A DNA stretch of 62,350 nt, the filler included, from Deltaproteobacteria bacterium (GTDB lineage: Bacteria > JAUYMQ01), in the NCBI GenBank assembly GCA_030698575.1. It is 12 parts of 12 records of this genome, joined end to end, with 100 filler letters (N's around TTAATTAATTAA, not from the genome) between each part and the next. Parts side by side here need not be neighbours in the genome. Positions count along the whole stretch, not along the records: positions 4,616 to 22,769 come from JAUYMQ010000645.1; 11 more parts are not named here. One strand, given 5' to 3'. Shown piece by piece: positions 5,358 to 22,749 of this stretch. The notes beneath the pieces were generated by a model. It was not told where the DNA came from. It did no database searches and was given only the letters and a program-made list of their open reading frames with translations. The stretch's first letter is position 1. The number at the start of each line of letters is the position of its first letter. The position numbers and the translations under genes are program-made.

Positions 5358-5413
5358 CGGCGCTACTATGGGGAGTTCACGCCGGCGAAGCAATCGGTCG
5401 TCGGGCCGCCCCT

Positions 5414-5929: not shown

Positions 5930-5988
5930 AGGTGCGGGAAAGGTACAGCAGCTAACGGATTCTTCGCGCCTGGCGCCCCCACTCCTCA

Positions 5989-6023
5989 GCAGATCCTTCG
6001 CGCCTGCGGGGCTCAGGATGACA
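5989..6023 (+). repeat. REP-like palindromic repeat, family A copy 1
   Basis: GCAGATCCTTCGCGCCTGCGGGGCTCAGGATGACA; 30/35 identical to 8698-8732; partial copy near 5957. Confidence 0.7.
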
Positions 6024-6044
6024 CGCTCGCTGCAGTGTATCCTC

Positions 6045-6644
6045 ATGAAAACTCTACTGCCATTCCTGGCATTCGTGCTCGCAGCGGGCTCGGGCGGCGC
6101 CCAGACGCCCGCTCGACGCAGCGGCGAACAGATCGATTCGTCGTTCAACGCGCACAAGGGCGAGTTCAACTACCTGCTCGGCGACTGGGAATTCAGGGCC
6201 ACGAGCATGCAGTGGGGTGAGTTCCGGGGGTACTGGAGCGCGGTGCAGCTCGACGAAGGGCAGATCCTGGATGAGTACCGGGTGGTAGGCGACAGCGGCG
6301 AGACCTACTACGTCACCACCACGCTGCGCAATTACAACGGCGCGGCGGACCGCTGGGAGCTGATCGGCGCCGACGCCGGACGGGGCCTCCTGGACTTCGG
6401 CACCGCCCGGAAGGTCGGGAGCGAGATGCACATCGAGCAGCGCTTCGGCGTGGCCGCCGGCGACTCGGCGCTGTCGCGGATACGCTATCACAACATCCAG
6501 CCGGACCGGTTCTCGTGGACTTTGGACCGCTCGGTGGACGGCGGCAAGACGTGGATCGTGGCCGCTCAGACCATCGAGGCTCGGCGCATCGGGCCCGCGC
6601 GGAGCATCGGCGCCCTGGCACCGGCGCGGAACAAGAAGCCATGA
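6045..6644 (+). CDS. Secreted hypothetical protein (DUF1579-like)
   Basis: Signal peptide; FNYLLGDW and SVDGGKTW motifs. Confidence 0.65.
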   Translation: MKTLLPFLAFVLAAGSGGAQTPARRSGEQIDSSFNAHKGEFNYLLGDWEFRATSMQWGEFRGYWSAVQLDEGQILDEYRVVGDSGETYYVTTTLRNYNGAADRWELIGADAGRGLLDFGTARKVGSEMHIEQRFGVAAGDSALSRIRYHNIQPDRFSWTLDRSVDGGKTWIVAAQTIEARRIGPARSIGALAPARNKKP

Positions 6645-6723
6645 GTTGCTCTCACGCTCGGGCCTAGGCTTTATCCGGGAGCAAGTCGACGGCACCCCCA
6701 AGCGCTTGCGCGGAATTCAATGG

Positions 6724-7755
6724 TTACGGACGACGGCCGCGCCCGCTCCCGCCCCCATCGCGCCGCCCGCCGCTCGACGGCCGCGCCGCCGGGCGCGATC
6801 CACCATTGCCGCCACGCGTCACACTCGGTCTGCCGCGCGGCGAACTGGGCCGCTCACGCGTTATGCTCGGCCGGTCGCGCGTGACGCGCGGCTTGCCGCG
6901 CGACGTGCCAGCGTCGCGCGTCCGAGGAGCGATGGTCGGGTTCGTCGTCGAGCCGCTGCGCTGACGGACTTCTGCCGGTGTATACCGCACGCGGTCGCGC
7001 GGAATCACGAAGCGCGAGCCACCGCCGCCCGTATGCCCGCCTCCCACAAACGTCGTGCCGAAGCGGCCGAAGCCGAACCCGAAGCGGGAGCGGTATCCGT
7101 AGTAGCAGCTCGCGCTCCAACCCCAGAAGGCATCGTAGCAGAACGGGTCATAGAACGGATCGTGGAAATACGACGATCGATACGGATAACCGAACGACAG
7201 GCCCAGACGGAACCGGTTGTGATAGCCATATCCGTATCCGTCGTGTCCGTAACGCCCGGCAATCTGGCGGCCGACCACGTAGCTGGCGGCGTCGTACTCG
7301 AAGCGCTGCTCGCCGCTCATCTGTCGCACGATGTCGAGCAGCCCCGCGAGCGGGTCCGCGCGCACCGTCCCGGCGCCGAGGGAGCGGTAGTCCCAGTGAT
7401 CGTTGCGGACGAAGCCATCGTAAGTGAAGGGATCGGCTGAGACGGCGGCGAGCACCGTACCCGCGCCGTCCGCGGCGTCCACGAAAATCGCGTCGCGATC
7501 CGAGCGGCCGCGCAGCTCCTGGCGCCGGCCGCCGCGCACGAAGGCATCGTCGGTGGGATCGAGCGGGAACAGGACGCGGACGCGGCCCTGAGGATCAGCG
7601 TGGAGAACGACGAGGAAGCCGTCCTGCGCGGTCTGGACGTAGACGCGGGCGCGATCGCCGCGAGAGAATTGCTCGTGATCGAGCCGGACCGTGATGGGGG
7701 CCGGGATGTCCTGAGCGACAGCGGGTGCAAGGGCGAGCAGCACAGCGAGCAGCAT
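6724..7755 (-). CDS. DUF4384-domain secreted protein with Tyr/Gly/Arg-rich tail
   Basis: GAGGAG RBS, signal peptide, GRVRVLFP motif. Confidence 0.7.
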   Translation of the reverse strand: MLLAVLLALAPAVAQDIPAPITVRLDHEQFSRGDRARVYVQTAQDGFLVVLHADPQGRVRVLFPLDPTDDAFVRGGRRQELRGRSDRDAIFVDAADGAGTVLAAVSADPFTYDGFVRNDHWDYRSLGAGTVRADPLAGLLDIVRQMSGEQRFEYDAASYVVGRQIAGRYGHDGYGYGYHNRFRLGLSFGYPYRSSYFHDPFYDPFCYDAFWGWSASCYYGYRSRFGFGFGRFGTTFVGGGHTGGGGSRFVIPRDRVRYTPAEVRQRSGSTTNPTIAPRTRDAGTSRGKPRVTRDRPSITRERPSSPRGRPSVTRGGNGGSRPAARPSSGGRRDGGGSGRGRRP

Positions 7756-7827
7756 GGGCGTCTCCTCGTGTCTTTCAATATACCCCAGGCTTGCGCCGAT
7801 GGATTTGCGTTCGCCGTCGCGGTGGAC

Positions 7828-8283
7828 CTAGCGCAACCGCCTGACCTCTTCGAGGGCTTCGATGTCCGCGGCGTCTTGCAGCCGTCCCGTGCGCTTGGTC
7901 TCGATGAGGTCGTCGATTCCAATCAGGGGAATCTTGACCCCGTCTACATCCACGGTACCTGCGTTGGGTGCCGCCTGCTCGTATTTGACCTTCCACGCGA
8001 CCGTGAACACGTCGACTCGCGGGTCGTCGCCGATGACCGTGATCGGACGCTTCAGGACCTCAGCTGCGGTCCACTCGCGGGCGAAGCCATAGCCAAGTGT
8101 CGTCAGTGCTTTAAGGACGCGCGCGGCGTTCGCTTCAGTGCGCTCGATCAGGATATCGATGTCTTCGGTCGCGCGCGCGTATCCATGCAGAATGCAGGCG
8201 ACACCTCCGATGACGAGGTATTTCGCCTTGCCGCGATTCAGCGCCGCGCAGACCGGTGTTATCCGCGATTGGCTCTTTTCCAT
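7828..8283 (-). CDS. Nucleotidyltransferase-fold protein (DUF6036-like), candidate TA component
   Basis: YLVIGGVA-x-HGYARATEDIDI; C-terminal K-x-TGR-x-D-x2-D. Confidence 0.8.
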   Translation of the reverse strand: MEKSQSRITPVCAALNRGKAKYLVIGGVACILHGYARATEDIDILIERTEANAARVLKALTTLGYGFAREWTAAEVLKRPITVIGDDPRVDVFTVAWKVKYEQAAPNAGTVDVDGVKIPLIGIDDLIETKRTGRLQDAADIEALEEVRRLR

Positions 8284-8624
8284 TCGTAGAAGTCCTCGTA
8301 GGAATCGAAGCCGATGATTTGCTGCACCGCGCCACGCCGCCGGCGCCGGCTCTGGGCGAGCCGCGACGTTGCCTCGGCCACTCGGAGCCGTTCGGCAGGC
8401 GAACGCGCGAGATCGCGCTCGAGCTGCTCGCGTCGAGCGACACCGACAGCGTCGGATCCGTAGGCGGGTTGTGGCGACTCGCGGACTGCGCTCGGACCTG
8501 TCAGGTATGCGCGCAGCGCATCGACAATCACCCGGCTGCGCGAGCGGTCGAGCTGCTTCGCGCGGCGGTCGGCAGCCGCGAGAACGCTTTTCGGCAGGGT
8601 AATGGCGATGCGAGCGTAGGCCAT
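8259..8624 (-). CDS. Ribbon-helix-helix (CopG-like) protein, candidate antitoxin
   Basis: RIAITLP...DRSRSRVIVDALRAYL; overlaps the downstream nucleotidyltransferase gene. Confidence 0.75.
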   Translation of the reverse strand: MAYARIAITLPKSVLAAADRRAKQLDRSRSRVIVDALRAYLTGPSAVRESPQPAYGSDAVGVARREQLERDLARSPAERLRVAEATSRLAQSRRRRRGAVQQIIGFDSYEDFYEWKRANRG

Positions 8625-8697
8625 GGGCGTACCTAGTATTACTGGGTATGAGTAAAATACTTCAGGGGAGGGAAAGAGAGAAGGGGGGTGGTCAAAA

Positions 8698-8732
8698 GCA
8701 GATCGGTCGCGCCTGTGGCGCTCGGGATGACA
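8698..8732 (+). repeat. REP-like palindromic repeat, family A copy 2
   Basis: GCAGATCGGTCGCGCCTGTGGCGCTCGGGATGACA. Confidence 0.65.
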
Positions 8733-8871
8733 GCCCGCTGGGCGCATGTAAAGCAAGAAGAAGCGTGGTTGGTTGGGTCCGTGCGCTGAAGCGCCGGCTC
8801 GGCTACTGCGCACGCCCTGAAGGGCGTCGATTGCCACCGCGCGCGTCCTCATTGTCAGCGCGCGTTGTCCT

Positions 8872-9270
8872 CGATCCAGCTCGAGTGTCCTCCGATCCCC
8901 CTAACGCACACTTCGATCAGTCGCGCGCGGACCGCGACCTGGCTGCAGCGCATCCCGATCGAACGTACGGGCGTGGCGATCGATTGTGCGCCCACCGCGA
9001 CCCGACTCGCGCCGACTCGGGCCGACCGAAGGCGGATCCCGACCGAGCTGCAGAGCCTGCCGATGAGACTTTCGTGGACCCCGATCGAGTGCGCGGGCGT
9101 GCCGAGCGGTTTTCACCGCATCCCGATCGATCGCGAGCGAACGTCGATCGCACTCGAGCGCACTGCGATCGGGCGAGCGCGGGCTCCGTGTCGAAATGCG
9201 TGGACAGCGATCGTGGCGCGGGGCTTTGCGTTTCAGCGAGCGCGCGTTGCGCGGCTCGCGCAGTGTCTCC
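8872..9270. repeat. Degenerate tandem array of 19 units with an exact 21-nt period
   Basis: CG at unit positions 1-2 in 18/19 units (mostly CGAT/CGAC), G at position 14 in 18/19, no indels. Confidence 0.85.
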
Positions 9271-9395
9271 GCCCGAGGACAACGGCGAGTGGACGTGAGC
9301 ACGAATCCGCGTGGCCCGATTTATCCAAAGCTGCACGTGGCGTCGGAGAGGATGGTCGTCACCTATGGCTCCTCTCTGTTCCGGAGAGGGTCGTC

Positions 9396-9437
9396 CTCAC
9401 CCCCGGGCCCCCTCTCCGTTCCGGAGAGGGGGAACTC
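9396..9437 (+). repeat. 42-nt palindromic repeat, family B copy 1 (partial copy at 9371-9390)
   Basis: CTCACCCCCGGGCCCCCTCTCCGTTCCGGAGAGGGGGAACTC; 38/42 identical to 13854-13895. Confidence 0.85.
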
Positions 9438-9448
9438 AAGGAGGGGTT

Positions 9449-10132
9449 ATGAACGCCCTATTACGCAGGCGGCTGGAGATGGCCGCGCGGGTCCGCGATT
9501 TTATGCGGGCCCACAAGACGGACGCCGTTGGTGAGGGACTCGGGCTCGCGAAGTTCGAGGAGCTGATCCAGCGCGCGGAGGTACTGGTGGCGCAGCAGCG
9601 CGGTGGCGTCGTGGTGACGCGAGCGGCCACCCAGCAGCGCGCCAAGCTTCGTCGAGCGCTGCAGAGCAAGCTGCTGCTCTATCTGCGCGCGGTTGGCGCG
9701 GTGGCGGCGAAGGAGAACGCGGAGTTGGCGGTGCAGTTCCAGCTGCCGCCCACGAACGCCAGCCACCAGGCGTTGCTCACCGTGGCGCGCGGGATGCTGG
9801 AGAAGGCGACCGCGCAGAAGGAGCTGCTGGTGAGCCGCGGCATGTCCCCGACGTTGCTCGATGCTCTCGCGGGCGCGTTGGGGGAGTTCGAGAAGACGCT
9901 GGAGGCTTCGCGCGAAGGCCGGCGCAATCATGTAGGTGCAAGCGCCGATCTCAAGGCCGTGGCGGCCGAGATCAAAGAGCAGGTCCGCGTGCTCGATGGG
10001 CTCGTGCGGTTCCGGTTTGGGGAGAACGCGGAGCTGATGGGGGCGTGGGCCAGTGCCCGCAACGTGCTGGGTCCGTTCAAATCCAAGGGCGGACCGGAGG
10101 CGGGCGGTGGTGAAGCGCCGAAGGCGGCGTGA
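9449..10132 (+). CDS. Hypothetical all-alpha-helical protein (227 aa)
   Basis: Strong AAGGAGG RBS before ATG 9449; GC3-biased codons; amphipathic helical pattern. Confidence 0.85.
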   Translation: MNALLRRRLEMAARVRDFMRAHKTDAVGEGLGLAKFEELIQRAEVLVAQQRGGVVVTRAATQQRAKLRRALQSKLLLYLRAVGAVAAKENAELAVQFQLPPTNASHQALLTVARGMLEKATAQKELLVSRGMSPTLLDALAGALGEFEKTLEASREGRRNHVGASADLKAVAAEIKEQVRVLDGLVRFRFGENAELMGAWASARNVLGPFKSKGGPEAGGGEAPKAA

Positions 10133-10277
10133 AGGCGGCGCCGAAGCCTGGGCCCAGGCGGCGAGGCGCGGTGGGTGGATGATCGCCTGCCGCGCGTTGT
10201 GCTTGTGCGGCTTAGACTTGGCTAACGCCCTCGTGGGCAATTCGATGCCCATTGAGGGTAACATTGTATTGACGCTG

Positions 10278-10862
10278 ATGATGAAAACCGAGACATTGCA
10301 GCCGATGCCCCTCCGCTATCGAGAGGACAGGGCGACCCAAGCCGCGGCCAGGTTGCTGCGCCTGCGGGGCGGTACCATGTCCTACCTTAAGTTGATGAAA
10401 CTCTTGTATTTCGCCGATCGGCGGGCCTTGGCAGAGCTAGGCAGGCCCATCAGCTACGACATGTACGTCTCCATGCCCCAAGGGCCGGTGCTCAGTCGCA
10501 CGCTGGACCTCATGACGGAAGAGCCAGAGCCCCATGCTGACCAGCTCTCGTATTGGCGCTCTTTTATTTCGGAGCCACACGACTGGGAAGTCAGTCTGCT
10601 GCGTGCCGAGATTCCAAACGACCAATTGTCGCGCGCCGAGGAAGAGATCCTGGATCGTGTCTTTGAGAAGTACGGGCGATTGTCGCGTTGGGAAATTCGC
10701 GATCTCTCGCACAAGCTTCCCGAGTGGCACGATCCGCACGGATCATGTGTGCCGATCAGCATTAAGGAAATTCTTCTGCACCAAGGCATGAGCGAGGAGG
10801 ATGCTCAAGCGGTCGTCGAGGCCCTGGGCGCGGAAAGCTATGCGGACCAGCTAGCGAGTTGA
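10278..10862 (+). CDS. Panacea (DUF4065, GepA/SocA-like) antitoxin
   Basis: LKLMKLLYFADR, MPQGPV and LSHKLPEW motifs. Confidence 0.85.
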   Translation: MMKTETLQPMPLRYREDRATQAAARLLRLRGGTMSYLKLMKLLYFADRRALAELGRPISYDMYVSMPQGPVLSRTLDLMTEEPEPHADQLSYWRSFISEPHDWEVSLLRAEIPNDQLSRAEEEILDRVFEKYGRLSRWEIRDLSHKLPEWHDPHGSCVPISIKEILLHQGMSEEDAQAVVEALGAESYADQLAS

Positions 10863-10878
10863 TCGGACTCTTTGTCCG

Positions 10879-11289
10879 ATGGAGTTCTTCAAGGCCGGAA
10901 GCGCCATTATCCTTTCAGGCTATCCGGTTGGCTCTCCTCACCTGTGGTTCGTTTTGACGGATCCTGATTCCGAATCCGATCAGGTTGTGGCCGTTATGGT
11001 CGTGACGGTACGCGGGCACACCGATAGAACAGTGACTCTATCCGCTGGCGACCATCCATTTATCAGGCATGATTCGTCGCTCGACTTCGGCGGTACGAAG
11101 CGCTTTCAGACGGCTCGACTCAACGCCGCCTTGCGCAGCGGTCGGTGTGAACTTTCCGAGAACATGACTGCGGCATTGTTGGGAAAGGTCCGGGCCGGGC
11201 TCTTAGCATCGCCCCGAACGCCCCATCACATTATCGATTACTGTCGCGACCGTTTTCCGAAGGACTTCACCCCTGAAGGACAGGCGTAG
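10879..11289 (+). CDS. Hypothetical protein, probable toxin partner of Panacea (possibly PemK/MazF-like)
   Basis: Starts 16 nt after the Panacea gene; HLWFVLT and GDHPFIRHDS motifs. Confidence 0.55.
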   Translation: MEFFKAGSAIILSGYPVGSPHLWFVLTDPDSESDQVVAVMVVTVRGHTDRTVTLSAGDHPFIRHDSSLDFGGTKRFQTARLNAALRSGRCELSENMTAALLGKVRAGLLASPRTPHHIIDYCRDRFPKDFTPEGQA

Positions 11290-14200
11290 TTTCGAGCTCC
11301 CGTGCGTAGTACCGCAGGCGACAGTACAGGTTGAACAGCTCCATCTCCTCCACGCTGTTCGGCCTCGTCCGGACCAGCTTCGACGACGCGACTACGATGG
11401 CCAAGCACCGCGCTCGCGACAACGTCACGTTCAGGCGGTTGGGATTGAGCAAGAACGCGGGACCCCGTGCTGTCTCCTCGAGCGATGAGGCGCACATGGA
11501 GACGATCACGACGGTGGCTTCCTGGCCCTGGAACTTGTCGACCGACGCGATACGGATCTTGGGATCGTTCATCCGTTCCTTAAGACAGCGCACCTGGGCG
11601 TTGTAGGGTGCCACAATCAGCAGATCTTTTGCGACATCGAAACCGTGCTCCTTCCCATCGTCCTCGCGCACGGTGGCCCGGCGCAGGTCCGCGACGTACT
11701 CGGCGATCCGATTGGCCTCCTCCGCGCTCGACTGGGTGTTTCCCTCGTGCTCGATCTCGTCGAGGATGATCCCGGTGCCGCGTGAAAGCACGTGCGCATC
11801 GGGTGGTAGCTTGATGCAACGCCTCGCGGTATTCGGACTGGGATGCAGCCGCCCTTCGTAGGCCGTATCCGAAATGAACCGGCAGATGTCGGGATGCAGG
11901 CGCCACGTGTCCGGCAGCAACACGCCCATGTCCGGCGGCACGGTGGCGTGCCCTTCCAGGAGATAGTGCAGGCATGACCAACCGCTGCGACCCGGATGCA
12001 CGGCCTGGGCAGGCTGGGAGAGCTGCATCTGGTCGCCGATCAGCACGATGTTCTTGGCCGACAGGCCCATCGCGACGGCGTTGGCGAGGCAGACCTGGCC
12101 TGCTTCATCGATGAAGAGATAATCGAAGCACTGATCCAGTTCCGGCCGAGCGAACAGCCACGCGGAGCCGCCCACGACGATACCGTCAGCGAGGAGACCA
12201 GAGACCTCCTTAGTGTCACACTGACTGATCCGCCGTTCGGGATCGTCGGCAGCGTCGTCTTCACCACCGGCTTTGTAGATCGCCAGCGGTTTCGCCAAGG
12301 TCCGCGATGCGTTGCTGACGTCGGTCAGGAGATTGTTGATCGCCTTGTGGCTGTTCGATGCGACGCCAATGCGCTTGCCGCCGCTCGCCAACGCCACGAT
12401 CACGGCCGCCGCGTTGTAGGTCTTGCCGGCACCGGGCGGCCCTTGAATGCAGAGCGTCGTGCGGTCGAGCCCGCGAATCAAGTCTATGAGATCGCCTGGG
12501 AATGTTGCCGCGTCCGGCAGCAACGCCCCGCCGGCTCTGTCGGTCAGCCTGGGCGTGCGGCGATGCAGGAGGTCGTCTACAGCGCGATACGCGTCGCGGT
12601 CACCGCTCGCCCAGTGTTCACCAAATCGGGTGACGGCCTCTCGCAGCGGGTCGGACGGGACGTGTTCGTTCGGAATGATGTGACAGAGATCGGGGATGGT
12701 GCGCTTGGGTCCGAACTTGATGGTGAGCCGTCCGGTATCGAGATCCAATGACTCGATCTTGTGCTTCTCGACCTCGCTCCCGAACAGCAGGTAGACGCGG
12801 TCGCCCGCCTCGACTTTGGTATCCTGATCGGGATTGAACGCGTACTCCACAAGCTGCGATTTCTTGACCGGGACGGGGGGCGTCTCCGTGCGCGTCACGT
12901 ACGCGATGCAATCGGCATCATCGTACAAATCCTCCGGCGGAGACTCGAGCCGATCGAAATACCGCCACCACATCGGCTTGTCCTCGCGCCGGTGGTAGCC
13001 GAGGAGCCACGCCACCAGGCGAGTGACGTCGTCCTGGGCATTCGAAAGCATCGCCTCGGCCAGCTCGTCCTCGGGCCGTGGCTCATCCGGTTGCTCCGCC
13101 TCCGGCGGAGGCTGCGGGATATAGACGATGCCCGCTTCGCGTTGCCGCTCGCGCAGCCACGTGGCGAGATGCCAGGTATTCTCGCAGTCCTCGCGGTTGT
13201 AATCGCGGATGGCCTTGAGGATCGGTGATGCACGCCAGTCGGGTGGCTCGCCGCTGGCAAGCCAGTTGTTGTATTCGACGACGGAGCTGGCCGCGCTGGT
13301 GACGAGGGCCGTGCGCGCGGGCGAGAAGAGCACCTCGATGTCCTTGAGCGAGTAGCCCCTCGTCCCGATCGCGACGCCGTTCTTGGTGACGGCGTAGAGA
13401 TCCACGAACACATCGCCGCGCAGCAGGTCATCCACCGCGTTCTCGCGGGTCGCGTACTTCCCCATGAGTCGCTGCAGCGCCGCCACTTCGTAATTGGCGT
13501 AGTGGTAGACGTGCATGTTCGGATCTGTGCGCAGCCGCTCGTGGATCCAGTCCACGGTCCGCTCGAAGGCCGCCTTTTCCTGCTCCGCGTCGTGCGCCCA
13601 TTCGTCCTTGAAGAGGGGCTTTCCGTCTTCGACCGTGATCGCGCCGAACAAATACTCGAGGCCGCTCTCGGCGAGGGGGTTGCCTTCGAGATCGAAGAAG
13701 ACATCGCCGGGGGAAGCGGGCGGCAGCATGGCGAGCCCGATGCGTTTGCCGGTCTCGTGGGGCAGGGGCTCGAACGTGGGCTTCGCTTTGCCGCGAGACT
13801 CCATTTGGAGCCGGGCCTGGCGTCGCAGCCGCGCGAGGACGTCGTCCGAGATTCTCACCCCCTGGCCCCCTCTCCCTTTGGGAGAGGGGGAACTCGAGGC
13901 GAGCGCCGTCATGGTCGCGATACCGGCGGCGCGCAGGCGTTTGATCTGGCTGCGGGTGATGCGGGCGACGAGACGCAGGTCGTCGCGCTCTTCTAGGGTC
14001 TTTTGAGCCGCGGTCTCCCATCGCCCCCAGCTCCGCTCGAGGGCGGGGTCGGGCTGCGCGCCGGGATCGAAGGCTTCCTGGATTTCGAGGAAGGTGTCCC
14101 GCAGGTGGCGATAGAAGTAAAAGGAGCGGTCGGTCTCGAACCAGCGTTCTTCACCCGTGCCGAGGACGAAGCCAAGCTGCGGCGGGCGAGTGTCCTGGAG

Positions 14201-14677
14201 TGCTTCGAGGTACTCGGCGTAGGCGCAGAGCTGGATCAGGAAGTAGGGCTTGGCCGAGCGGGCGAGCTTTGAGTCGAGCGGCCGGTAGGACCAGGGGCCG
14301 AGGCGGCTCGGCGTTTCGGTGCGGACCAGGAAGTCGGGGTAGCCGTGCCAGACGCCGTGGTCGAGGCGGCCCTGGTAGATGAGCCTCTTCCCGGTCTGGA
14401 GCGCGGCGAGCGTGTTGGCGCCATCCTTCTCGTGCTCGAAGCGGACCGCGGGGCCGTGCTGGAGTTCGAGCTTGGCGAGGACGGCGGCCTCGTGCTGCAT
14501 TCCCTTATCTCGGACCAGGGCCATCTCGGGGTCGGCGTCGTCAGGGGAAGGGAAGCTCGGGTCTTTGCGTCCGCGCTCGGCGTAGGCGCGTTCCATCCAG
14601 GCGGCGAACTCACCGGAGAGGAAGGTGATGAGGTCGGAGGGGGAGAATTGGAGCGAGTGGCCAGCCGAATGTCTCAT
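11267..14677 (-). CDS. TM0106-family RecB-like nuclease with RNase H-like and SF1 (Upf1/DNA2-like) helicase domains
   Basis: GYPDFL/DSKLA (PD-D/ExK), FFDLEG, QGPPGAGKT, IDEAGQ, IGDQMQL, SVDKFQGQE, NRLNVTLSRA. Confidence 0.92.
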   Translation of the reverse strand: MRHSAGHSLQFSPSDLITFLSGEFAAWMERAYAERGRKDPSFPSPDDADPEMALVRDKGMQHEAAVLAKLELQHGPAVRFEHEKDGANTLAALQTGKRLIYQGRLDHGVWHGYPDFLVRTETPSRLGPWSYRPLDSKLARSAKPYFLIQLCAYAEYLEALQDTRPPQLGFVLGTGEERWFETDRSFYFYRHLRDTFLEIQEAFDPGAQPDPALERSWGRWETAAQKTLEERDDLRLVARITRSQIKRLRAAGIATMTALASSSPSPKGRGGQGVRISDDVLARLRRQARLQMESRGKAKPTFEPLPHETGKRIGLAMLPPASPGDVFFDLEGNPLAESGLEYLFGAITVEDGKPLFKDEWAHDAEQEKAAFERTVDWIHERLRTDPNMHVYHYANYEVAALQRLMGKYATRENAVDDLLRGDVFVDLYAVTKNGVAIGTRGYSLKDIEVLFSPARTALVTSAASSVVEYNNWLASGEPPDWRASPILKAIRDYNREDCENTWHLATWLRERQREAGIVYIPQPPPEAEQPDEPRPEDELAEAMLSNAQDDVTRLVAWLLGYHRREDKPMWWRYFDRLESPPEDLYDDADCIAYVTRTETPPVPVKKSQLVEYAFNPDQDTKVEAGDRVYLLFGSEVEKHKIESLDLDTGRLTIKFGPKRTIPDLCHIIPNEHVPSDPLREAVTRFGEHWASGDRDAYRAVDDLLHRRTPRLTDRAGGALLPDAATFPGDLIDLIRGLDRTTLCIQGPPGAGKTYNAAAVIVALASGGKRIGVASNSHKAINNLLTDVSNASRTLAKPLAIYKAGGEDDAADDPERRISQCDTKEVSGLLADGIVVGGSAWLFARPELDQCFDYLFIDEAGQVCLANAVAMGLSAKNIVLIGDQMQLSQPAQAVHPGRSGWSCLHYLLEGHATVPPDMGVLLPDTWRLHPDICRFISDTAYEGRLHPSPNTARRCIKLPPDAHVLSRGTGIILDEIEHEGNTQSSAEEANRIAEYVADLRRATVREDDGKEHGFDVAKDLLIVAPYNAQVRCLKERMNDPKIRIASVDKFQGQEATVVIVSMCASSLEETARGPAFLLNPNRLNVTLSRARCLAIVVASSKLVRTRPNSVEEMELFNLYCRLRYYARELETTPVLQG
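13854..13895 (+). repeat. 42-nt palindromic repeat, family B copy 2, in frame inside the TM0106 gene
   Basis: Read on the minus strand as part of SSSPSPKGRGGQGVR. Confidence 0.85.
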
Positions 14678-14742
14678 GGATCAGGCAACGTATGGCGGGG
14701 GTGGGACAGGGTATAGGAGGCCAGCGGCAGAGCAGCAACGTG

Positions 14743-15285
14743 TCACATCGGCGACCACCCCAGTGCTTCTTCAATCTTCCGACGATATTGCGTGTCGATC
14801 TGGCGCGGGGCTCGTCGAATGTAGCGCTCGGCGACGTATCGCCGCTGGCCGGTAAGGGGCGTCAAATATTCAATGATCTGACCCACGGATGGTGAGGCTA
14901 TTTCGTCTAGTTTGGGTCCGAGGGCCGTCCAAATCACGGCATCAACGCTGTGAGCCTTCGTCCACGTTGGCAGATCAGGAATTTCACCTGGCCCCTCGTC
15001 CCCGGTCTGCCAAACCCCAACGTCCTTCTCCCAGTTCTTGCTCGTGAGCCGCTCGCGACGGCGGAGCGCCTCCTTCGCTGGCTGAATCGTGCTTGGCAGC
15101 ATGAGAGCCCAGAGGACACGAACTTGCGCGGCTGACGTATCGATTACGAGAGTGATACTGCCGTCCGATGACTTGCGCTTGAACTCAATGGGCGCTAGTG
15201 GCCCGACAGGGAACCACTCACTTCGCAGGGGGAGGTCGCGTGGATCCCACACAAGCGAGCCCCAACCGAGACAGGCGATGTCCAT
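14743..15285 (-). CDS. Hypothetical protein with GGCT/ChaC-like N-terminal motif
   Basis: IACLGWGSLVWD resembles the FGYGSLIW motif of gamma-glutamylcyclotransferase-fold proteins. Confidence 0.55.
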   Translation of the reverse strand: MDIACLGWGSLVWDPRDLPLRSEWFPVGPLAPIEFKRKSSDGSITLVIDTSAAQVRVLWALMLPSTIQPAKEALRRRERLTSKNWEKDVGVWQTGDEGPGEIPDLPTWTKAHSVDAVIWTALGPKLDEIASPSVGQIIEYLTPLTGQRRYVAERYIRRAPRQIDTQYRRKIEEALGWSPM

Positions 15286-15314
15286 TTCGTGCTAGCGAAC
15301 GGTTTCTGCACGGG

Positions 15315-16181
15315 TCAGCACTGAGACGCTCGGAATTCGGACCACGTCAGAACCCGTGTCATGGCATAGCGACCGTCCAGGACTGCTCGCGCTGCCCGAC
15401 GAAGGGGGCGGTCCTCAGTCACAAGGAGGGCCTTGCGACCACTAGACAGATACAACAGTTGGAGAAGATCTGCATGCTGAACGCGTTTGGGTTGTTCAGC
15501 TACAACCGTTCGCTCAAATACGGCGATTCCTTCAAGCTCTATGAGAAGACGCCACACCGGATGTACGAGAAGTGCTTCGACAGGGGCATCTCCCTGAAGT
15601 CCTAGCTTCGTCCAAATGCCGCGAAGAAAGTCATCTTGCTGTAGCGCCTTGGTCCATTGACCATCCAAGAATTCTGCTGCCGAACCCCATCTGTCCGCTC
15701 CTGATTGCCTCTTCAAGAACCCTCGAATAACGGGCCGTGCTCTCCGGTGCATTGCGTCGAACCGCTCTTCGAGGTCTTGGCGAAACTTCGCGGCCGCGCG
15801 TCGAACCTCTTCGCTCACGTTGCCTGGGTGTTCGAGCATCGGTTCGAGCCCAGAGCGACCACTCCAGAAGCCGGGTTGGCCTTGAACAATTGCCTGTCCA
15901 GCCTTCCTCAGTATGTGCTCAGGGAGCGGTAATAAGCCCTTTTCGCCGGCAAGGGCTGAGAGGATGGTTAGGGCGCGGCGTCGGATGTCAGGATTTTGGT
16001 TACTCGCTATCTCGATTGCGTTGATAGCAGTCGGCCATATCTCAAAGTCCACGGCGGCGAGGCTCCGCGTGATCATCGCCCGTTCGGATCGATCCTCTAG
16101 GAACTTCAGGCAGTTTGTATCGAATACAACGATGCCAGAGGGTTGGTTCGATGCGCGCACGTGCCACGGGCTCTTCATCAC
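15315..16181 (-). CDS. PIN-like domain protein with large internal insertion
   Basis: VVFDTN, AIEI, HADLL and LLVTEDR: four PIN-type acidic positions spread over 288 aa. Confidence 0.65.
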   Translation of the reverse strand: MMKSPWHVRASNQPSGIVVFDTNCLKFLEDRSERAMITRSLAAVDFEIWPTAINAIEIASNQNPDIRRRALTILSALAGEKGLLPLPEHILRKAGQAIVQGQPGFWSGRSGLEPMLEHPGNVSEEVRRAAAKFRQDLEERFDAMHRRARPVIRGFLKRQSGADRWGSAAEFLDGQWTKALQQDDFLRGIWTKLGLQGDAPVEALLVHPVWRLLIELEGIAVFERTVVAEQPKRVQHADLLQLLYLSSGRKALLVTEDRPLRRAARAVLDGRYAMTRVLTWSEFRASQC

Positions 16182-16185
16182 GCCG

Positions 16186-16620
16186 CTACGCTTTTTGCTT
16201 TCTTCGAGTCCCAGTCTGCGCCTTGAGATTGAATGGGCTGAGCCACACGGGACCGAATCGCCCCCGACCAGTGATGTTGGCGATCGCCTCTCGAATGAAT
16301 GGAAAGACCAGAGTCCAGCCGGCCAATGAGACGTAGTTATCGAGGGGCATGTTCGGAGCGGTCTGCTCGCGCTCCAGGAGCGCAGTCATCGTCACGTCGA
16401 ACTCGTAGACAGCCTCCGTTTTTGGCTTTGTTCGTACTCTAGTCCGAATCAATGCAGCGGAGCCGTCGCTCGTGAGTCCAGTTTCGAGAGCTACAAGGAG
16501 CTCTCGAACATCCGCAGGCTTTTCGGCGGGAAGGTCTAAGAACCCTGGTCGGTGCTTGAACGTCGCTTTCTCCAAGAAAACTTGGACTAGGCGAATCCCA
16601 GGCTGTTTCGTCTCATCCAT
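16186..16620 (-). CDS. SecB-like chaperone of a TAC system
   Basis: LVFPFIREAIANITGRGRFGPVWLSPFN SecB signature; TGATG overlap with the antitoxin stop. Confidence 0.85.
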   Translation of the reverse strand: MDETKQPGIRLVQVFLEKATFKHRPGFLDLPAEKPADVRELLVALETGLTSDGSAALIRTRVRTKPKTEAVYEFDVTMTALLEREQTAPNMPLDNYVSLAGWTLVFPFIREAIANITGRGRFGPVWLSPFNLKAQTGTRRKQKA

Positions 16621-17285
16621 CAAGCCACCTCAATTGCACAATCATCAGGCGCAGAACCTGTGCTCCGTTTGGTTCCGGAGTGCGCGGTTGATGTCGTCTT
16701 GCCAGATGTCGACTTAGCAATCAAACGAAACCGTCCATACTGCTTGCGTCGCACCGAGGCACCAACGTGCACAACCATCGTAAAAATCTTTGACGACGAT
16801 TTCGAAAAATCGTGAATCAAAGACTGCCGGACTTCAGTGCCGGCGCCTTCCGAACGATGAACGGCCTCCACGCCGTTCCGCCGCGCGACGGCTTCAAAGA
16901 CTCCCGGGAAGTCCCGTGCGATGAGCAGCAGATTGTCAACAGCTTTGCTCTGGCACACACTTCCGCGTTCCCACCGCACGACTGTCTTCGCTCCAAGCCC
17001 CAATGCCTTCTCAAGCTGCGCTTGCGAAAGACCGTACGCTGCCCGGATTTCTCTGATCTCCAGGGGCGACAGGAGACCGGCATGAGTGCGAAGGACCGCT
17101 GCTCGCGCCCGGCTCGAGGCAAGGGACTGTTCGGGGGTGTAGAATGCCTCGCCACACGTCGAGCACGTGGTAAGCTCGTCTTCGTAGTTCAGGACACCAC
17201 CGTCAGGCGCGCGGACACTTTGAGCAGTCCGCGTCGGCACGAGCGTCGCTTGTTTACAGCTAGGGCACACAGGGAAACCAGTCAT
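16620..17285 (-). CDS. mqsA: MqsA-family antitoxin (Zn finger + XRE HTH) with ~80-aa ChAD-like C-terminal extension
   Basis: CPSC...CSTCGE; EIRAAYGLSQAQLEKALGLGAKTVVRWERG; polar low-complexity tail. Confidence 0.88.
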   Translation of the reverse strand: MTGFPVCPSCKQATLVPTRTAQSVRAPDGGVLNYEDELTTCSTCGEAFYTPEQSLASSRARAAVLRTHAGLLSPLEIREIRAAYGLSQAQLEKALGLGAKTVVRWERGSVCQSKAVDNLLLIARDFPGVFEAVARRNGVEAVHRSEGAGTEVRQSLIHDFSKSSSKIFTMVVHVGASVRRKQYGRFRLIAKSTSGKTTSTAHSGTKRSTGSAPDDCAIEVA

Positions 17286-17298
17286 GGGATCGCTCTGA

Positions 17299-17622
17299 TC
17301 ACTTCGAACTCTTGAATGACAGCACCTTGAGATCGTGGTCCTTGGGCAGGCGGATTGACACTTTCACGTAGAGTAACCTCTCCTGATAGCGTTTTCGGAA
17401 TACGTAAACCTCCTTACCTGGAATAGTCTCGTCCGGTTCTTCCTCACGAATCTCACCCACCGTGAGACTGCACAAACACTCGAGAACATCCTCAGCATCC
17501 AGGTCCAAATCGCCTAACGACGACTGCACTCTCGCTTCGATTCTCACCTGCCGCGCGTGTGCCAACATCCGAATCAGACGGACAGCTTCCACCCGGCGCG
17601 CATCCGCCCCGGCGTCACTCAT
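17299..17622 (-). CDS. mqsR: MqsR/RelE-superfamily mRNA interferase toxin
   Basis: 107 aa directly upstream of mqsA; LYVKV and VLSFK motifs. Confidence 0.75.
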   Translation of the reverse strand: MSDAGADARRVEAVRLIRMLAHARQVRIEARVQSSLGDLDLDAEDVLECLCSLTVGEIREEEPDETIPGKEVYVFRKRYQERLLYVKVSIRLPKDHDLKVLSFKSSK

Positions 17623-17645
17623 CGGACGCGCAGTGTAACGGGAAC

Positions 17646-17662
17646 GGTATCAGGGTGCTACC
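17646..17662. promoter_or_regulatory. Candidate antitoxin operator (7-3-7 imperfect palindrome)
   Basis: GGTATCA-GGG-TGCTACC about 24 nt upstream of the toxin start. Confidence 0.5.
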
Positions 17663-17810
17663 ATAGCCGCAAGACTTAAACCACGGTACAAACACGGCTG
17701 TCGCTCCTTACCTGCTCTGGCCAGCTGCGCTTAGATGGCTCGGACGCTCAAGGTGTAGCACCATCATAGCGTATTGTCAACTGTACGCCGGCAAGTTTGC
17801 CGGCGGGGAC

Positions 17811-17838
17811 TTGACATACCTGCGACACCGGATAGCAT
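17811..17838 (+). promoter_or_regulatory. Candidate sigma70 promoter for the BREX operon
   Basis: TTGACA-N16-TAGCAT; an opposite-strand TTGACA at 17780-17775 may drive the TAC operon. Confidence 0.45.
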
Positions 17839-17902
17839 TCCAGCGCGACCGGGACATGCCCTTGACCGTCGGACGGAAACGCCGAGCCGGAGACTTGGAA
17901 CG

Positions 17903-18709
17903 GTGACCAGCTACCAGTTCGCTTGGCCTGGACCTAGCCCTCATTGGCGGGAGGAAGACGCCCAACAGGTGGGGCTCAAGTTCGGCGACAAGGGCACGCA
18001 CACGAGCCGTACGATGATGCTCGAGGAGCTCGCGACGGTATTGTCCGCGGTCCCCGAGCTCGGCACACGAGAGGATTACGAACATGCGATCGTTTCCGAC
18101 AACTGCCTCGGCAAACCCACCGGCTCCACACGTCGGCTGAGCCGCCAACGTCTCGCCGAGCTTTACGCCCTCGATCCGACGGTTCCTCTCTTTAGGGTGC
18201 TGCGGCGACTCTGGCGGGTCGAGGATTCAGGACGACCCCTGCTTGCCCTCTTGTCCGCCATGGCGCGCGATCCATTACTCCGCGCCACAGCGCCCTCGGT
18301 GCTGTCCCTCACGGAGGGTGAGGAGTTCCGGCGAGTCGGAGTACGAGACACTCTCCGTGAGGCGGTGGGAGATCGACTCAATGACAGCACCCTCGACAAG
18401 GTCGTCCGCAACGCCGCGAGTTCATGGAGTCAAGCGGGGCACCTGAGCGGGCGCACGTTCAAGGTCCGTCGGCGTGTGCACCCAACACCTGCGACCGTCG
18501 CATACGCGCTCTATCTTGGCGTCAAGACCGGATTCAGCGGAATCGACTTGTTCACGAGCGGTTGGATAGCATCGCTTGACGCGGACCCATCGACGGCGCG
18601 CGAGGTCGCGTTGACTGCCAAACGACTCGGACTCATCGACCTTCGCTTGTCCGATGACATTTTCCAATTGAACGTCGACCGCCTGGACCCTTGGGCGGGG
18701 AAGGCTTGA
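17903..18709 (+). CDS. brxA: BrxA-like protein (start uncertain)
   Basis: First gene before brxB/brxC; GTHTSRTMMLEEL and SSWSQAGHL motifs. Confidence 0.6.
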   Translation: MTSYQFAWPGPSPHWREEDAQQVGLKFGDKGTHTSRTMMLEELATVLSAVPELGTREDYEHAIVSDNCLGKPTGSTRRLSRQRLAELYALDPTVPLFRVLRRLWRVEDSGRPLLALLSAMARDPLLRATAPSVLSLTEGEEFRRVGVRDTLREAVGDRLNDSTLDKVVRNAASSWSQAGHLSGRTFKVRRRVHPTPATVAYALYLGVKTGFSGIDLFTSGWIASLDADPSTAREVALTAKRLGLIDLRLSDDIFQLNVDRLDPWAGKA

Positions 18710-18712
18710 ATA

Positions 18713-19276
18713 ATGGGCCGCATTGAGGATCTCGCAGAGCGATACGGGCGGGATATCGCGACGCCCTGGCAACGCACCGTCGCCGGTGCGCAGCGGGTCG
18801 TCATGGTGGTATACGACAAGGATCTGGAGCGCACGCTCCGCGCCCGGCGGCAAGCGTTCGAGCTTGAGACGCAAAAGGCCTTGCACGACTGGTTCGAGGT
18901 GGACGTTACAGATGCATTCGGCCGCTGGATGGCGTCCAGCGAATACCGCGAGGCGTACTTCGAGTCTCCGGAAGATCTCGAGCTCAAACTCGAGGCCGAG
19001 TTCGCCGAAGTCGTTGCCGAACGGATTCGAGCCACGCTCGCTCGTCCCGACGTCACGGCGAATTCTGTGGTCGCGGTGCTCGGCGTTGGATCGCTATACG
19101 GGCTAACGCGCGTGTCGAAAGTGCTGAAGCTGGTGGAGGGAGATATCAAGGGACGGCTGGTCGTCTTTTTTCCCGGCCAGTACGAGCAGAACAACTATCG
19201 CCTGCTGGATGCGCGGGATGGATGGAACTACATGGCAGTGCCGATCAGTCTGCACGGCACAGGAGAAACGCAATGA
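18713..19276 (+). CDS. brxB: BREX protein BrxB (DUF1788)
   Basis: GVGSLYG, GRLVVFFPG and YRLLDARDGWNY; ATGA overlap with brxC. Confidence 0.85.
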   Translation: MGRIEDLAERYGRDIATPWQRTVAGAQRVVMVVYDKDLERTLRARRQAFELETQKALHDWFEVDVTDAFGRWMASSEYREAYFESPEDLELKLEAEFAEVVAERIRATLARPDVTANSVVAVLGVGSLYGLTRVSKVLKLVEGDIKGRLVVFFPGQYEQNNYRLLDARDGWNYMAVPISLHGTGETQ

Positions 19277-22200
19277 AGATTACCGAGATCCTACAGCGCG
19301 ATCCGAAGACGAACCCTCTCGTCAACCAGGGGCAGGCGCGCATCGTGGATCGTACCACGGCGCGAGAGGTGGCAGAACTGAAGGCGGAACTGGGCACATT
19401 CGTGTGTGAGGGTGAGTACTCCGAAGCGATCCAGCGGATTCTGTCGTCGTACCTCGCGAACCTGCAACACACCAGCCAAAAGGCCGCCTGGGTGAGTGGG
19501 TTCTTCGGCAGTGGCAAGTCGCATCTCCTCAAGATGCTCTGCCACCTGTGGCAGGATACCGCCTTTGATGACGGGTCCACCGCCCGGAGCCTGGTGCCGG
19601 CACTGCCGCAAGAGATTCGCGCGCTATTGCGCGAACTGGACACGGCTGGCAAGCGGGCCGGGGGCCTGCTAGCAGCGGCGGGGTCGTTGCCGGGCGGTAC
19701 CACCGATAACGTGCGGCTGACCGTGCTGGGCGTCCTTCTGCGCGGCGCGGATCTTCCGGAGCAATACGCCCAGGCGCGTTTTTGCCTGTGGCTACACGAG
19801 CGTGGGTTCTACGACCGCGTGCGTGAGGCCGTAACCTCAGCGGGCAAGTCTTGGGACTCAGAGCTCAACAACTTGTACGTGAGCGATGTGCTCGCGAAAT
19901 CTCTGCTCGGTTGTGATCCCGCGTTTGCTCCCAACGAGGTCGAAGCCCGCAAGACGATCCGGGCCCAGTTCGATCAACCGAAGACGGACATTCCGACAAA
20001 CGAGTTCCTACGAATCGCCAAACAAGCCCTCGCACTCCGGGGGCGCGACGGGCGCCTGCCATGCACGCTGCTCGTTCTGGACGAGGTACAGCAGTATATC
20101 GGCGGGTCCGTCGAGCGTTCCACGCTCGTCACGGAAGTCGTCGAAGCGATCTCGAAACAACTCGATGGCCACGTGATGGTGGTCGGCGCCGGCCAGAGCG
20201 CACTATCTGAGCAGCAACTGTTTCACAAGATGCTCGACCGGTTCACGATTCGCGCCCAGCTCTCCGACACGGACGTCGAGGCGGTGACGCGCAAGGTGCT
20301 CCTCCAAAAGAAGCCGGCAGCAGTCGCAAAGATCCGAGAGTTCCTCAAGCAGCACGACGGGGAGATCTCCCGCCAGCTCCACGGGTCGCGTGTCGGCGCG
20401 TCGATGGAAGACGACGCCGTAATCGTCGATGACTACCCTTTGCTTCCGGTGCGGCGCCGCTTTTGGGAGCACGTCTTCCGGGCCGTGGACTTAGCAGGAA
20501 CGCACAGTCAGTTACGTTCGCAGCTGCGCATCATCCACGATGCGGTGAGCAAGCTGTCGGATCGCGAGCTGGGAGCAGTTGTGGCCGCCGACGAGCTCTA
20601 TGAGGCGCTGGCTCCCGAAATGGTCAACACCGGCGCCCTCCTCAGGGAGATCAATGAGCGGATCATCAAGCTCTCGGAAAGCGGGACGAAGGAAGCCAAA
20701 CTTGCGCGCCGTATCGCGGGGCTCGTTTTCCTGATCGGCAGGTTGCCGCGCGAGGGGGGCGCCGACATCGGGGTCCGCGCCACCAAGGACCACTTGGCGG
20801 ACCTATTGGTCGATGACCTGCGCGGGGACAACGGGAAGCTGAGAAGCGAAGTGGAGGCGACCCTGGCCAGTCTCGCCCAGGACGGTGTGCTCATGCAGGT
20901 CGGCGACGAGTACCGACTGCAAACCCGCGAGGGAAGTGAGTGGGATCGCGAGTACCGTAACCGCCTTACTCGTGTCACAGGTGACGAAGTCGCAATCACA
21001 ACCGAGCGCGAGCGTCTGCTCTACGGGGAGATCGGCCGTGTGCTGGGCAGTATCCGCCTCCAGCACGGCAAGGCAAAGGAGACGCGACAGCTGGCGGTCC
21101 ACCGAGATCAGACGCCACCGCCGCCCGCCACCGATGCGATCCCCGTTTGGATTCGCGACGGGTGGTCAGGGCAGGAAAAGGACATGGTGGACGCCGCGCG
21201 TCGCGCCGGAGCCGATGGCGCCGTCGTGTATACGTTTCTGGCGCGGCAAGCCCCGGAGGACTTCCGCGAGGCCATCGTTGAATCACTCGCCGCGCAGCAA
21301 GCCCTTGATGCGAGGGGCCACCCGACTACGCCGGAAGGGCAGGAAGCCCGCCGCAGCATGGAGAGTCGCGTAGCGCTCGCTACGAAGCGCCGAGACGATT
21401 TGGTGCGTCAAATCGTCGCCAATGCCAAGGTCTTCCAGGGTGGAGGTAGCGAGGTACTCGATAACGTCCTCGACGAGCGACTGCGCTCGGCGGCTAGCGC
21501 TTCCATTACCCGACTATACCCGCAGTTCGACGAGGCTGATGCACTGGCCACTGCGTGGGACAGTGCTATCAAACGCGCCCGCGACGGCGCTGACCACCCG
21601 CTCCAACCGGTGGGGCACACGGGACCGATCGAGGATCATCCTGTATGCCGGCAGGTGCGGCAGACGATCGGGGCCGGCGCGACAGGAACGACGGTGCGGA
21701 AGGCTCTCCGGGCGGCTCCCTATGGTTGGCCGCAGGATGCGATTGACGCGGCGCTCATCGCCCTCCACCGCACGCAGCACGTGACCGTCGTCCTGAACGG
21801 CGTGCCGGTGCAGCTTGGTCAGCTCGACCAGAACAAAATTGCGAAAGCGGAGTTCAAGGCCGAGAAAATCACGCTAAACGCGACCGACCGTATTGCGATT
21901 CGGTCAGTCTTCAGCTCGGCCGGCGTGAATTGCAAGTCCAACGAAGAAGGCCTGCGTGCCGGCGAGTTCCTCGCGGCACTCGGGCGGTTGGCCGACGCAG
22001 CCGGCGGTGACGCGCCCCTGCCGCAACCGCCGTCCCAGGCCGTCATCCAAGAGCTGCGAGCGCTGGTGGGCAACGAGCAACTGGTGGCGATTCGGAATCG
22101 TGCGGAGGATCTAAAGAAGGAGATCGAGAGCTGGAAGAAGACCGCGGATCTCGCCGCGCAGCGTCGTCCCACCTGGGCGCTCGTGGAGCACCTTACGCGC

Positions 22201-22737: not shown

Positions 22738-22749
22738 GGTAAGCGACGG

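Follow-up and report, generated by a model that had tools for sequence, protein, structure and literature searches.

Does a toxin-antitoxin-chaperone (TAC) module that is closely followed by further genes of the same orientation form one system with them, or do these genes merely share its location? The question is raised by a locus of a Deltaproteobacteria bacterium known from a groundwater metagenome-assembled genome (MAG; GCA_030698575.1; 653 contigs, 4.13 Mb, 91.6% complete, 4.6% contamination), which lies in a window of 62,350 nucleotides, that is, the whole stretch of DNA that was analysed. Runs of N (4516-4615, 22770-22869 and nine further pairs, with paired 44-N runs) split the window into contigs of the MAG. 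Because the window is made of joined contigs, comparisons across these joints are meaningless and 'flanking genes' are here always genes within 4616-22769, the limits of the contig to which our finding is confined (C85; JAUYMQ010000645.1; 18154 bp). The listing of open reading frames (ORFs) shows six co-directional ORFs on the minus strand, at 11267-17622, designated g1 to g6 from upstream to downstream: genes for an MqsR-family toxin, an MqsA-family antitoxin, a SecB-like chaperone, a PIN-like protein, a GGCT-like protein and a TM0106-family nuclease-helicase (Table 1).

An initial annotation, made from the raw sequence, had named the six genes in these terms, and families, folds and homologues bear out all six identities. 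It had also proposed a multi-effector defence system in which the TAC is extended by g4 and perhaps by g5, and in this our analysis does not follow it: relatives of the TAC genes were found in 0 of 7 loci carrying relatives of g4 and in 0 of 19 loci carrying relatives of g5. We consider it reasonably probable that the locus belongs to a defence island whose modules are independent of one another, in which an MqsRAC-type TAC (g1-g3) and three solitary pieces of mobile cargo (g4, g5 and g6) lie beside a BREX (bacteriophage exclusion) operon.

The toxin, antitoxin and chaperone genes

Consecutive genes from g1 to g6 are separated by 13, -1, 4, 29 and 65 nt and, like the coordinates, these gaps agree with the initial annotation. 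The g2/g3 junction was read directly as a TGATG overlap (-1), which becomes -4 with the TTG start of g3. For g4, an in-frame GTG at 16160, eight codons downstream of the start in Table 1, matches the N-termini of the homologues better in alignment; if this start is used, the gap between g3 and g4 is 25 nt instead of 4. None of the six is a chance frame, because every ORF has homologues or a family match.

We found five homologues of g1, with 64-71% identity, in a set of 5.8 billion proteins. Its own sequence does not match PF15723 (MqsR_toxin) at E<=1, and g1 alone has no match in four family libraries (Pfam, NCBIfam, PADLOC and PHROG). PF15723 is nevertheless matched by five of the six aligned members of the g1 family (best E 3.6e-6), and in the PDB the family profile is best matched by E. 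coli MqsR (3hi2_B; full length, E 0.0031); the same chain is the sole PDB match at E<=10 of the single g1 sequence (E 0.42).

The antitoxin g2 scores above the cut-offs of both TIGR03830 (90.7 bits, cut-off 61.8), over residues 7-131, which comprise a zinc finger and a helix-turn-helix, and PF15731 (37 bits, cut-off 30). The remaining 90 residues (132-221) match no family, and their translation contains the aromatics F159, F167, Y182 and F185. The third gene, g3, matches PF02556 (SecB) with 34.7 bits against a cut-off of 26, and it is the sole PF02556 match in this 91.6%-complete MAG. To our knowledge, the SecB-like TAC gene of Mycobacterium tuberculosis is likewise the only SecB of its genome. 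Searches for relatives of g3 gave no tblastn match on 72,556 plasmids, none in viral contigs and a single weak one in 400 other genomes.

The locus thus has a type II toxin gene first, its cognate antitoxin gene directly downstream, a C-terminal extension on the antitoxin and a SecB-like gene in third place. This succession of toxin, tailed antitoxin and SecB-like chaperone, in which 13 nt separate the first two genes and the last two overlap, therefore identifies g1-g3 as a TAC of the MqsRA kind. As the initial annotation stated, three-gene TACs are known and some of them act against phages. The antitoxin tail confers chaperone dependence in the MqsRA-SecB TAC of Vibrio cholerae RC385 (PMC5105189); a second source reports that MqsRAC from E. 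coli C496_10 is anti-phage, describes a chaperone addiction domain (ChAD) of 96 residues with spaced aromatics in HigA of E. coli NT1F31, and presents the chaperone as the phage sensor, the TAC being triggered by a phage protein that competes for it (bioRxiv 10.1101/2024.02.24.581848).

With MqsRAC, the genes g1-g3 share the order of toxin, antitoxin and chaperone, the MqsR and MqsA families, a C-terminal tail on the antitoxin, a SecB-like gene that overlaps the end of the antitoxin gene, and a setting among defence genes. They differ from it in that their sequences are very distant, that of g1 lying below Pfam detection, and in that three more co-directional genes follow g3; chaperone dependence is ascribed to g2 by analogy. 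In length, the 90-aa tail of g2 is nearer to the 96-aa ChAD of NT1F31 HigA than to the tail of V. cholerae MqsA, of about 40 aa, by the figures of these two sources. The same three-part logic, in which a SecB-like chaperone stabilises an antitoxin with a ChAD, is described for HigBAC (M. tuberculosis Rv1955-57; E. coli NT1F31) and CmdTAC, although the toxin is different: MqsR in the window, HigB in HigBAC and an ADP-ribosyltransferase in CmdTAC.

The tail of g2 is treated here as a candidate ChAD that would be held by the g3 chaperone. By analogy with the systems above, the MqsR-family RNase toxin g1 would be kept inactive by g2, whose tail, presumably disordered, would make the antitoxin unstable unless g3 holds it. 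A phage protein occupying the chaperone would then lead to the degradation of g2, and the freed toxin would cleave mRNA and bring about abortive infection. The analysis shows the identities of the genes, their layout, their composition and the lack of co-occurrence at other loci; this mechanism, as well as the activities of g4, g5 and g6 and any role of these three genes in defence, we infer from family membership and from the published TACs.

The three downstream genes

The PIN-like gene g4 has no match in the four libraries at E<=0.01. Seven close homologues were found in 5.8 billion clustered proteins, and a profile search of 1.84 billion representatives retrieved 279 at E<=1e-3, mostly of about 275 aa. 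Its AlphaFold2 (AF2) model is confident (predicted local distance difference test, pLDDT, 92.9). A Foldseek search of the PDB gave no match at E<=1e-3; in a VIA-align comparison with 48161 chains, most of the upper ranks belong to PIN domains (about 36 of the 50 matches listed), with Z up to 9.6, a root-mean-square deviation of about 3-4 Å and 104-144 aligned residues spread over positions 13-288. The matches include archaeal PIN proteins, SMG6/EST1A, VapC toxins, Utp24, Rrp44 and Nob1. The spread of the aligned residues along the model is compatible with a PIN core that a helical insert of about 130 residues interrupts. Across an alignment of 47 sequences of the family, D21 and D238 do not vary, and conservation reaches at least 90% at E57 and D257. 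The Pfam PIN model PF01850 is matched by 5 of these 47 (best E 4.6e-4), while g4 itself reaches 14.4 bits (E 0.058) against a cut-off of 23.6; because this score lies below the curated cut-off, we file g4 as PIN-like by fold and not as a member of PF01850.

The designation 'PIN-like' thus stands on the modelled fold and the conserved acidic residues, and g4 would be a nuclease. It resembles nucleases of the VapC and SMG6 type in fold (Z 8-9.6) and in its four acidic residues, which lie at the expected active-site positions. It differs from them in the helical insert of about 130 aa that splits the core, in its sub-threshold Pfam PIN score and in having no conserved adjacent antitoxin in the loci examined. 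One member of the family, P0252 (389 aa), is extended at its N-terminus by about 115 aa, in which an R-x4-H (HEPN-like) motif was read by eye. In a protein atlas, both g4 and g5 fall in unnamed clusters, with sub-threshold leads to PIN (0.87) and ChaC/GGACT (0.82), respectively.

The next gene, g5, belongs to a much larger family. Its search retrieved 1171 homologues which, among the 120 matches listed, show 54-69% identity and come from several phyla. It has no Pfam, NCBIfam, PADLOC or PHROG match at E<=0.01, and thus none to the Pfam ChaC/GGACT families. Its AF2 model (pLDDT 81.7) has human ChaC2 (6ky1) as best Foldseek match (E 5e-4, probability 1.0, TM-score 0.52), and the top ten are all ChaC2, the yeast glutathione-specific GGCT (5hwi) or human GGCT (2rbh). 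In 28 sequences, W8-G9-S10-L11, E34 and E78 are invariant; the N-terminal WGSL motif resembles what we take to be the YGSL-type motif of the ChaC/GGCT family. On its modelled fold, g5 remains 'GGCT-like', and a corresponding enzyme activity may be supposed. It shares the fold with ChaC/GGCT proteins and has invariant glutamates that are candidate catalytic residues; it departs from these proteins in the lack of a Pfam ChaC/GGACT match and in its mobile settings, which include plasmids and defence islands as well as the head-tail module of a phage.

The last gene, g6, matches TIGR03491 over its full length with 227.7 bits (cut-off 97.45), as well as PF13482, PF13086 and PF13087, and has the same architecture as TM0106-named plasmid proteins of many phyla, from which it shows no notable difference. 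The PADLOC model of MkoA, from Mokosh, matches the helicase part of g6 only (residues 850-1113 on positions 791-1088 of 1112), and g6 was accordingly ruled out as a full-length MkoA. A second, distant TM0106-type nuclease-helicase exists in the same MAG (C478:654-3754), with 27-31% identity to g6 in two segments. Among the papers listed by literature searches on GGCT-like or TM0106 genes in phage defence, and as far as these searches go, none is relevant; none of those listed for TM0106 contains this term, and no experimental function was found in them.

Relatives of the downstream genes and the question of one system

If g4 and g5 were conserved parts of the TAC, their relatives should be accompanied by its genes. 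The initial annotation had suggested a neighbourhood analysis of the PIN-like homologues, and had named a lack of co-occurrence of PIN-like and GGCT-like homologues with TAC loci as counting against its proposal; such a lack was observed at every locus examined. We searched the loci of relatives with all six proteins by tblastn (E<=0.01). Of the seven g4 loci, one belongs to a Gemmatimonadales MAG (L001) and three to other genomes of its phylum; the remaining three are short contigs from metagenomes. Relatives of g1, g2, g3, g5 and g6 were found in none of them, and no SecB-like ORF precedes the g4 relative in any of the six loci with some upstream sequence. Four of the seven have multi-kb flanks, of at least about 7 kb on each side except for one side of L013 (2.8 kb). 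Elsewhere, g4 gave no tblastn match on plasmids and none in a scan of viral contigs, and it occurs in 1 of 41 diverse genomes (its own); of 401 genomes sampled from the phylum to which the Gemmatimonadales MAG belongs, 4 have a copy.

The neighbours of the g4 relatives vary from locus to locus, and the relatives are mostly solitary, with no conserved neighbour or adjacent antitoxin gene in the loci examined. They lie, in different loci, in a region with integrase-like and tape-measure-like ORFs (named from their translations alone) and a small zinc-ribbon ORF; beside a 296-aa R-x4-H ORF and a Schlafen/AlbA_2 gene; beside an Mrr-like nuclease; or after an AbiEi/AbiEii-like pair, also recognised by translation alone, behind which a truncated copy of the gene is found. 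The 296-aa ORF (L014:6227-7117, plus strand) lies directly upstream of the g4 relative and has no Pfam match, its motif having been read by eye. Around the g4 relative of L013, at about 375-7350, an intergenic repeat occurs at least five times, yielding the motif '...GLQRAAG...GVAAAPPCWLEDGAA...LPLKPKVVRP' in spurious ORFs, and looks like a REP (repetitive extragenic palindromic) or MITE (miniature inverted-repeat transposable element) sequence.

For g5, which is present in 3 of 401 sampled genomes, we examined 19 loci, nine from plasmids or genomes and ten from viral contigs, and found no relatives of g1-g4 or g6 in any. Three of the seven annotated plasmid neighbourhoods hold defence genes: in one, a DpnII restriction-modification system accompanies a PIN-like/DUF262 pair; in another, Qat stands together with a HEPN gene; the third has methylase, PLD and helicase genes. 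The other four have no annotated defence genes. Three of these look metabolic, with transporters and the repair gene UvsE in Pantoea, oxoprolinase and ATP-grasp genes in Comamonadaceae, and amidotransferase and MOSC genes in Caballeronia. Together with the glutathione-specific cyclotransferases among the fold matches, all four would suit a locus in which g5 is metabolic cargo, a ChaC-like enzyme degrading gamma-glutamyl compounds, and g4 possibly an RNA-processing PIN protein, neither having a role in defence. We find this very doubtful, because the other three neighbourhoods and the copies in viral contigs lie among restriction, Qat, HEPN, PLD or phage morphogenesis genes, and because g4 and g5 themselves stand between a TAC and a nuclease-helicase and next to BREX. 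In one proviral lineage, the g5 relative is part of a morphogenesis module of the siphovirus type, where head-closure and tail-terminator genes flank it. The copies concerned (L044:6001-6534, L049:6001-6540 and L043:3991-4524), with about 50% identity, look like members of one phage lineage; the order in L044, according to PHROGs, is portal, protease, major head protein, g5 relative, tail terminator, tail protein and tape measure.

The fourth of the neighbourhoods without annotated defence genes, on a Robbsia plasmid, has a 1140-aa helicase gene directly before the g5 relative, as well as DUF5677, multiubiquitin-domain and copper-resistance genes. One could imagine that g4, g5 and/or g6 form a separate multi-gene system that abuts the TAC, pairing the PIN-like with the GGCT-like gene or the latter with TM0106: besides the Robbsia case, the genes of the window are co-directional, their gaps are 29 and 65 nt, and PADLOC recognises none of them as a whole. 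We regard such a system as highly improbable. The Robbsia helicase was rejected as a homologue of g6 (best BLASTP E 0.51), no pairing of g4, g5 and g6 appears in the 19, 7 and 4 loci examined for g5, g4 and g6, respectively, and the GC content at third codon positions (GC3) is 0.66 in g5 as against 0.82 in g6.

The four plasmid loci with relatives of g6 contain no relatives of g1-g5. In these, the gene lies after BrxL; after McrBC; with a WYL regulator and SOS/repair genes; or with Fic, recombinase and helicase genes. Copies of g6 that cover 80% or more of the length, at about 40% identity, are present on at least 59 plasmid records, and these copies, together with neighbourhoods that include BREX and McrBC, identify g6 itself as island cargo. 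The initial annotation had seen TM0106 as a more host-like gene that may only mark the insertion site; its GC3 of 0.82 is indeed host-like, but a gene of such distribution is not a mere marker. Family sizes, too, do not suit a common system: with five homologues of g1, seven of g4 (279 cluster representatives by profile) and 1171 of g5, the families are more unequal than one would expect of obligate partners.

The proposal of the initial annotation can be put in definite form: g4, and perhaps g5, would be lineage-specific effectors under an MqsA-repressed promoter, or g2 or g3 would directly restrain g4. Several observations weigh against a reading of independent modules, and some of them favour this extended TAC. 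Firstly, the sample of g4 loci is small: the relatives with full flanks are only four, 32-41% identical and from one phylum, and the closest relatives (43-50% identity) are on contigs of 0.9-7.7 kb, so that their context comes from three short loci only. Secondly, the closest relative with upstream sequence, L002 (49% identity, 0.8 kb upstream; a single case), has an 81-aa ORF (L002:335-580, plus strand) 250 bp upstream of the g4 relative (L002:832-1659). This ORF corresponds to the N-terminal zinc-finger half of MqsA (PF15731, 29.5 bits, cut-off 30, E 8.9e-7), and hints, as far as sequence goes, at some link between the PIN family of g4 and MqsA-like proteins. Thirdly, GC3 is outlyingly low in g1-g5 and not in g6, which fits a five-gene block acquired together. 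Lastly, the gaps of 4 (or 25) and 29 nt are too short to accommodate a recognisable terminator or promoter, neither of which was seen above chance, so that joint transcription of g4 and g5 with the TAC is probable in this locus.

Composition was the point on which the initial annotation had set the first five genes apart as less GC-rich than the flanking genes, and the figures agree with it. GC is 0.546-0.599 across g1-g5 as against 0.647 in g6, and GC3 is 0.57-0.66 in g1-g5, 0.72-0.76 in BrxA-C and 0.73-0.91 in the genes of the left flank. The g1-g5 block (2880 bp) has a GC of 0.575, whereas the genome mean in 2.9-kb windows is 0.654 (standard deviation 0.026), and a GC as low is found in 0.3% of 4804 equal-sized windows of the genome. 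A Panacea-type pair beyond g6 also has low GC (0.57-0.58), and for this reason we read low GC as a mark of mobile cargo in general and not, taken alone, of one cassette.

As to transcription, a scan of 11000-18000 for promoters and terminators gave no signal above shuffle expectation. A search of sequencing runs found the stretch in two DNA runs of one groundwater study, with no RNA run listed. Contigs of both show the same gene arrangement and no alternative joined form, although neither run is independent of the source; in the second (X2, Logan), contigs bridge the g6/g5 and g4/g3 junctions. The Logan contigs of the other run (X1) break at 14553/14670, 15281/15293, 16176 and 17130/17175, that is, at or near the g6|g5, g5|g4 and g4|g3 borders, two of which X2 bridges; the breaks may reflect branching of the assembly graph at module borders, or chance. 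Complex prediction for g2 with g4 gave no answer (score 0.00, below the mark of 0.32), which is evidence neither for nor against an interaction.

Taken with the operon-like gaps, the composition common to g1-g5, the MqsA-type ORF of L002 and the recurrence of the arrangement in a second, non-independent run, the extended TAC has a case, yet we judge it unlikely. Relatives of MqsR, MqsA and SecB are missing from all seven g4 and all 19 g5 loci, and the g4 relatives are mostly solitary. In L017, the one other SecB-like three-ORF module seen (27% identity to g3; known by its layout only, the first two ORFs being untyped) is followed after 4 nt by a convergent gene and not by a fourth co-directional one. 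Published TACs, moreover, are three-gene systems as the two sources describe them (PMC5105189; bioRxiv 10.1101/2024.02.24.581848). The strongest form of the idea is a five-gene abortive-infection operon with three effectors, of a type not known to have been described: g4 and g5 would be transcribed from the MqsA-repressed TAC promoter, and capture of the chaperone by a phage would free MqsR and also switch on a PIN-like nuclease and a GGCT-fold enzyme that modifies small molecules or peptides. This seems to us decidedly improbable. A more modest form would have triggering of the TAC induce g4 and g5 in this bacterium by read-through from the MqsA-controlled promoter, even though the arrangement is not conserved; this, too, we hold to be quite unlikely. 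On the reading of a defence island made of independent modules, g4, g5 and g6 would be separately mobile single-gene cargo, placed downstream of the TAC in the same orientation, possibly read through from its promoter but conserved partners neither of it nor of one another.

Surroundings and significance of the locus

The genes around g1-g6 conform to an island. Upstream, g1 is divergent from BrxA-BrxB-BrxC, the start of a BREX operon that the initial annotation had not seen; PglX, PglZ and BrxL, the other genes of a type 1 system, cannot be seen, because the contig ends (22769) 32 nt past BrxC. The sole promoter-like site in the g1/BrxA intergenic region is on the plus strand at 17811-17838, with one site found and 1.4 expected by chance. 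PADLOC, a check suggested in the initial annotation, matched BrxA, BrxB and BrxC besides the partial MkoA match of g6, and returned nothing for g4 and g5 at E<=0.01.

On the other side, the Panacea pair is convergent with g6 and overlaps its 3' end by 23 nt; the Panacea gene and its 136-aa partner are probably a toxin-antitoxin (TA) module. Farther left (7828-8852, minus strand), a nucleotidyltransferase-like ORF, with weak matches to DUF6036 and aminoglycoside nucleotidyltransferases, overlaps an upstream ribbon-helix-helix-like ORF, and the two are possibly another TA pair. The contig consists, from about 7.8 kb, of a run of TA and defence genes. Before it, a Ser/Thr protein kinase domain gene (4616-5444, minus strand) is cut by the start of the contig and is followed on the same strand by DUF1697 and DUF4384 genes, with a host-like GC3 of 0.80-0.91.

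Table 1. Genes and other features of the locus, in coordinates of the window
Feature	Position	Strand	Basis
g1, MqsR-family toxin, 107 aa	17299-17622	-	Homologues, PF15723, profile match to 3hi2_B
g2, MqsA-family antitoxin, 221 aa	16620-17285	-	TIGR03830, PF15731
g2 C-terminal extension, residues 132-221, candidate ChAD	16623-16892	-	No family covers it
g3, SecB-like chaperone, 145 aa from TTG (ATG one codon later, 16620)	16186-16623	-	PF02556
g4, PIN-fold protein with helical insert, 288 aa	15315-16181	-	Fold, conserved acidic residues
g5, GGCT/ChaC-fold protein, 180 aa	14743-15285	-	Foldseek
g6, TM0106-family RecB-like nuclease + RNase-H-like domain + superfamily 1 (SF1) helicase, 1136 aa	11267-14677	-	TIGR03491
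Divergent intergenic region g1/BrxA	17623-17953	.	PADLOC BrxA match starts at residue 61 of the 17774 ORF
BrxA	17774-18709	+	PADLOC, 2.7e-92
BrxB	18713-19276	+	PADLOC, 5.4e-77
BrxC	19222-22737	+	PADLOC, 1419.5 bits
Panacea (SocA-like) antitoxin-domain gene	10254-10862	+	PF13274, 4.1e-24
136-aa Panacea partner	10879-11289	+	phrog_19071, 3e-9, function unknown

A very divergent MqsRAC-type TAC in an uncultured groundwater bacterium widens the range of chaperone-gated TA defence. It lies in a MAG that has no match for a housekeeping SecB, and the long candidate ChAD tail of its antitoxin can be compared with the examples from E. coli and mycobacteria. A five-gene system, if true, would be a new coupling of effectors to a TAC sensor, although the evidence speaks against such a system being conserved. 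The locus also brings out two families that have no Pfam model, one with a PIN fold and a helical insert (279 cluster representatives) and one with a GGCT fold (more than 1100 homologues). Because their members are solitary in defence islands, plasmids and prophages, the families of g4 and g5 may reasonably be considered for single-gene roles in defence or counter-defence.

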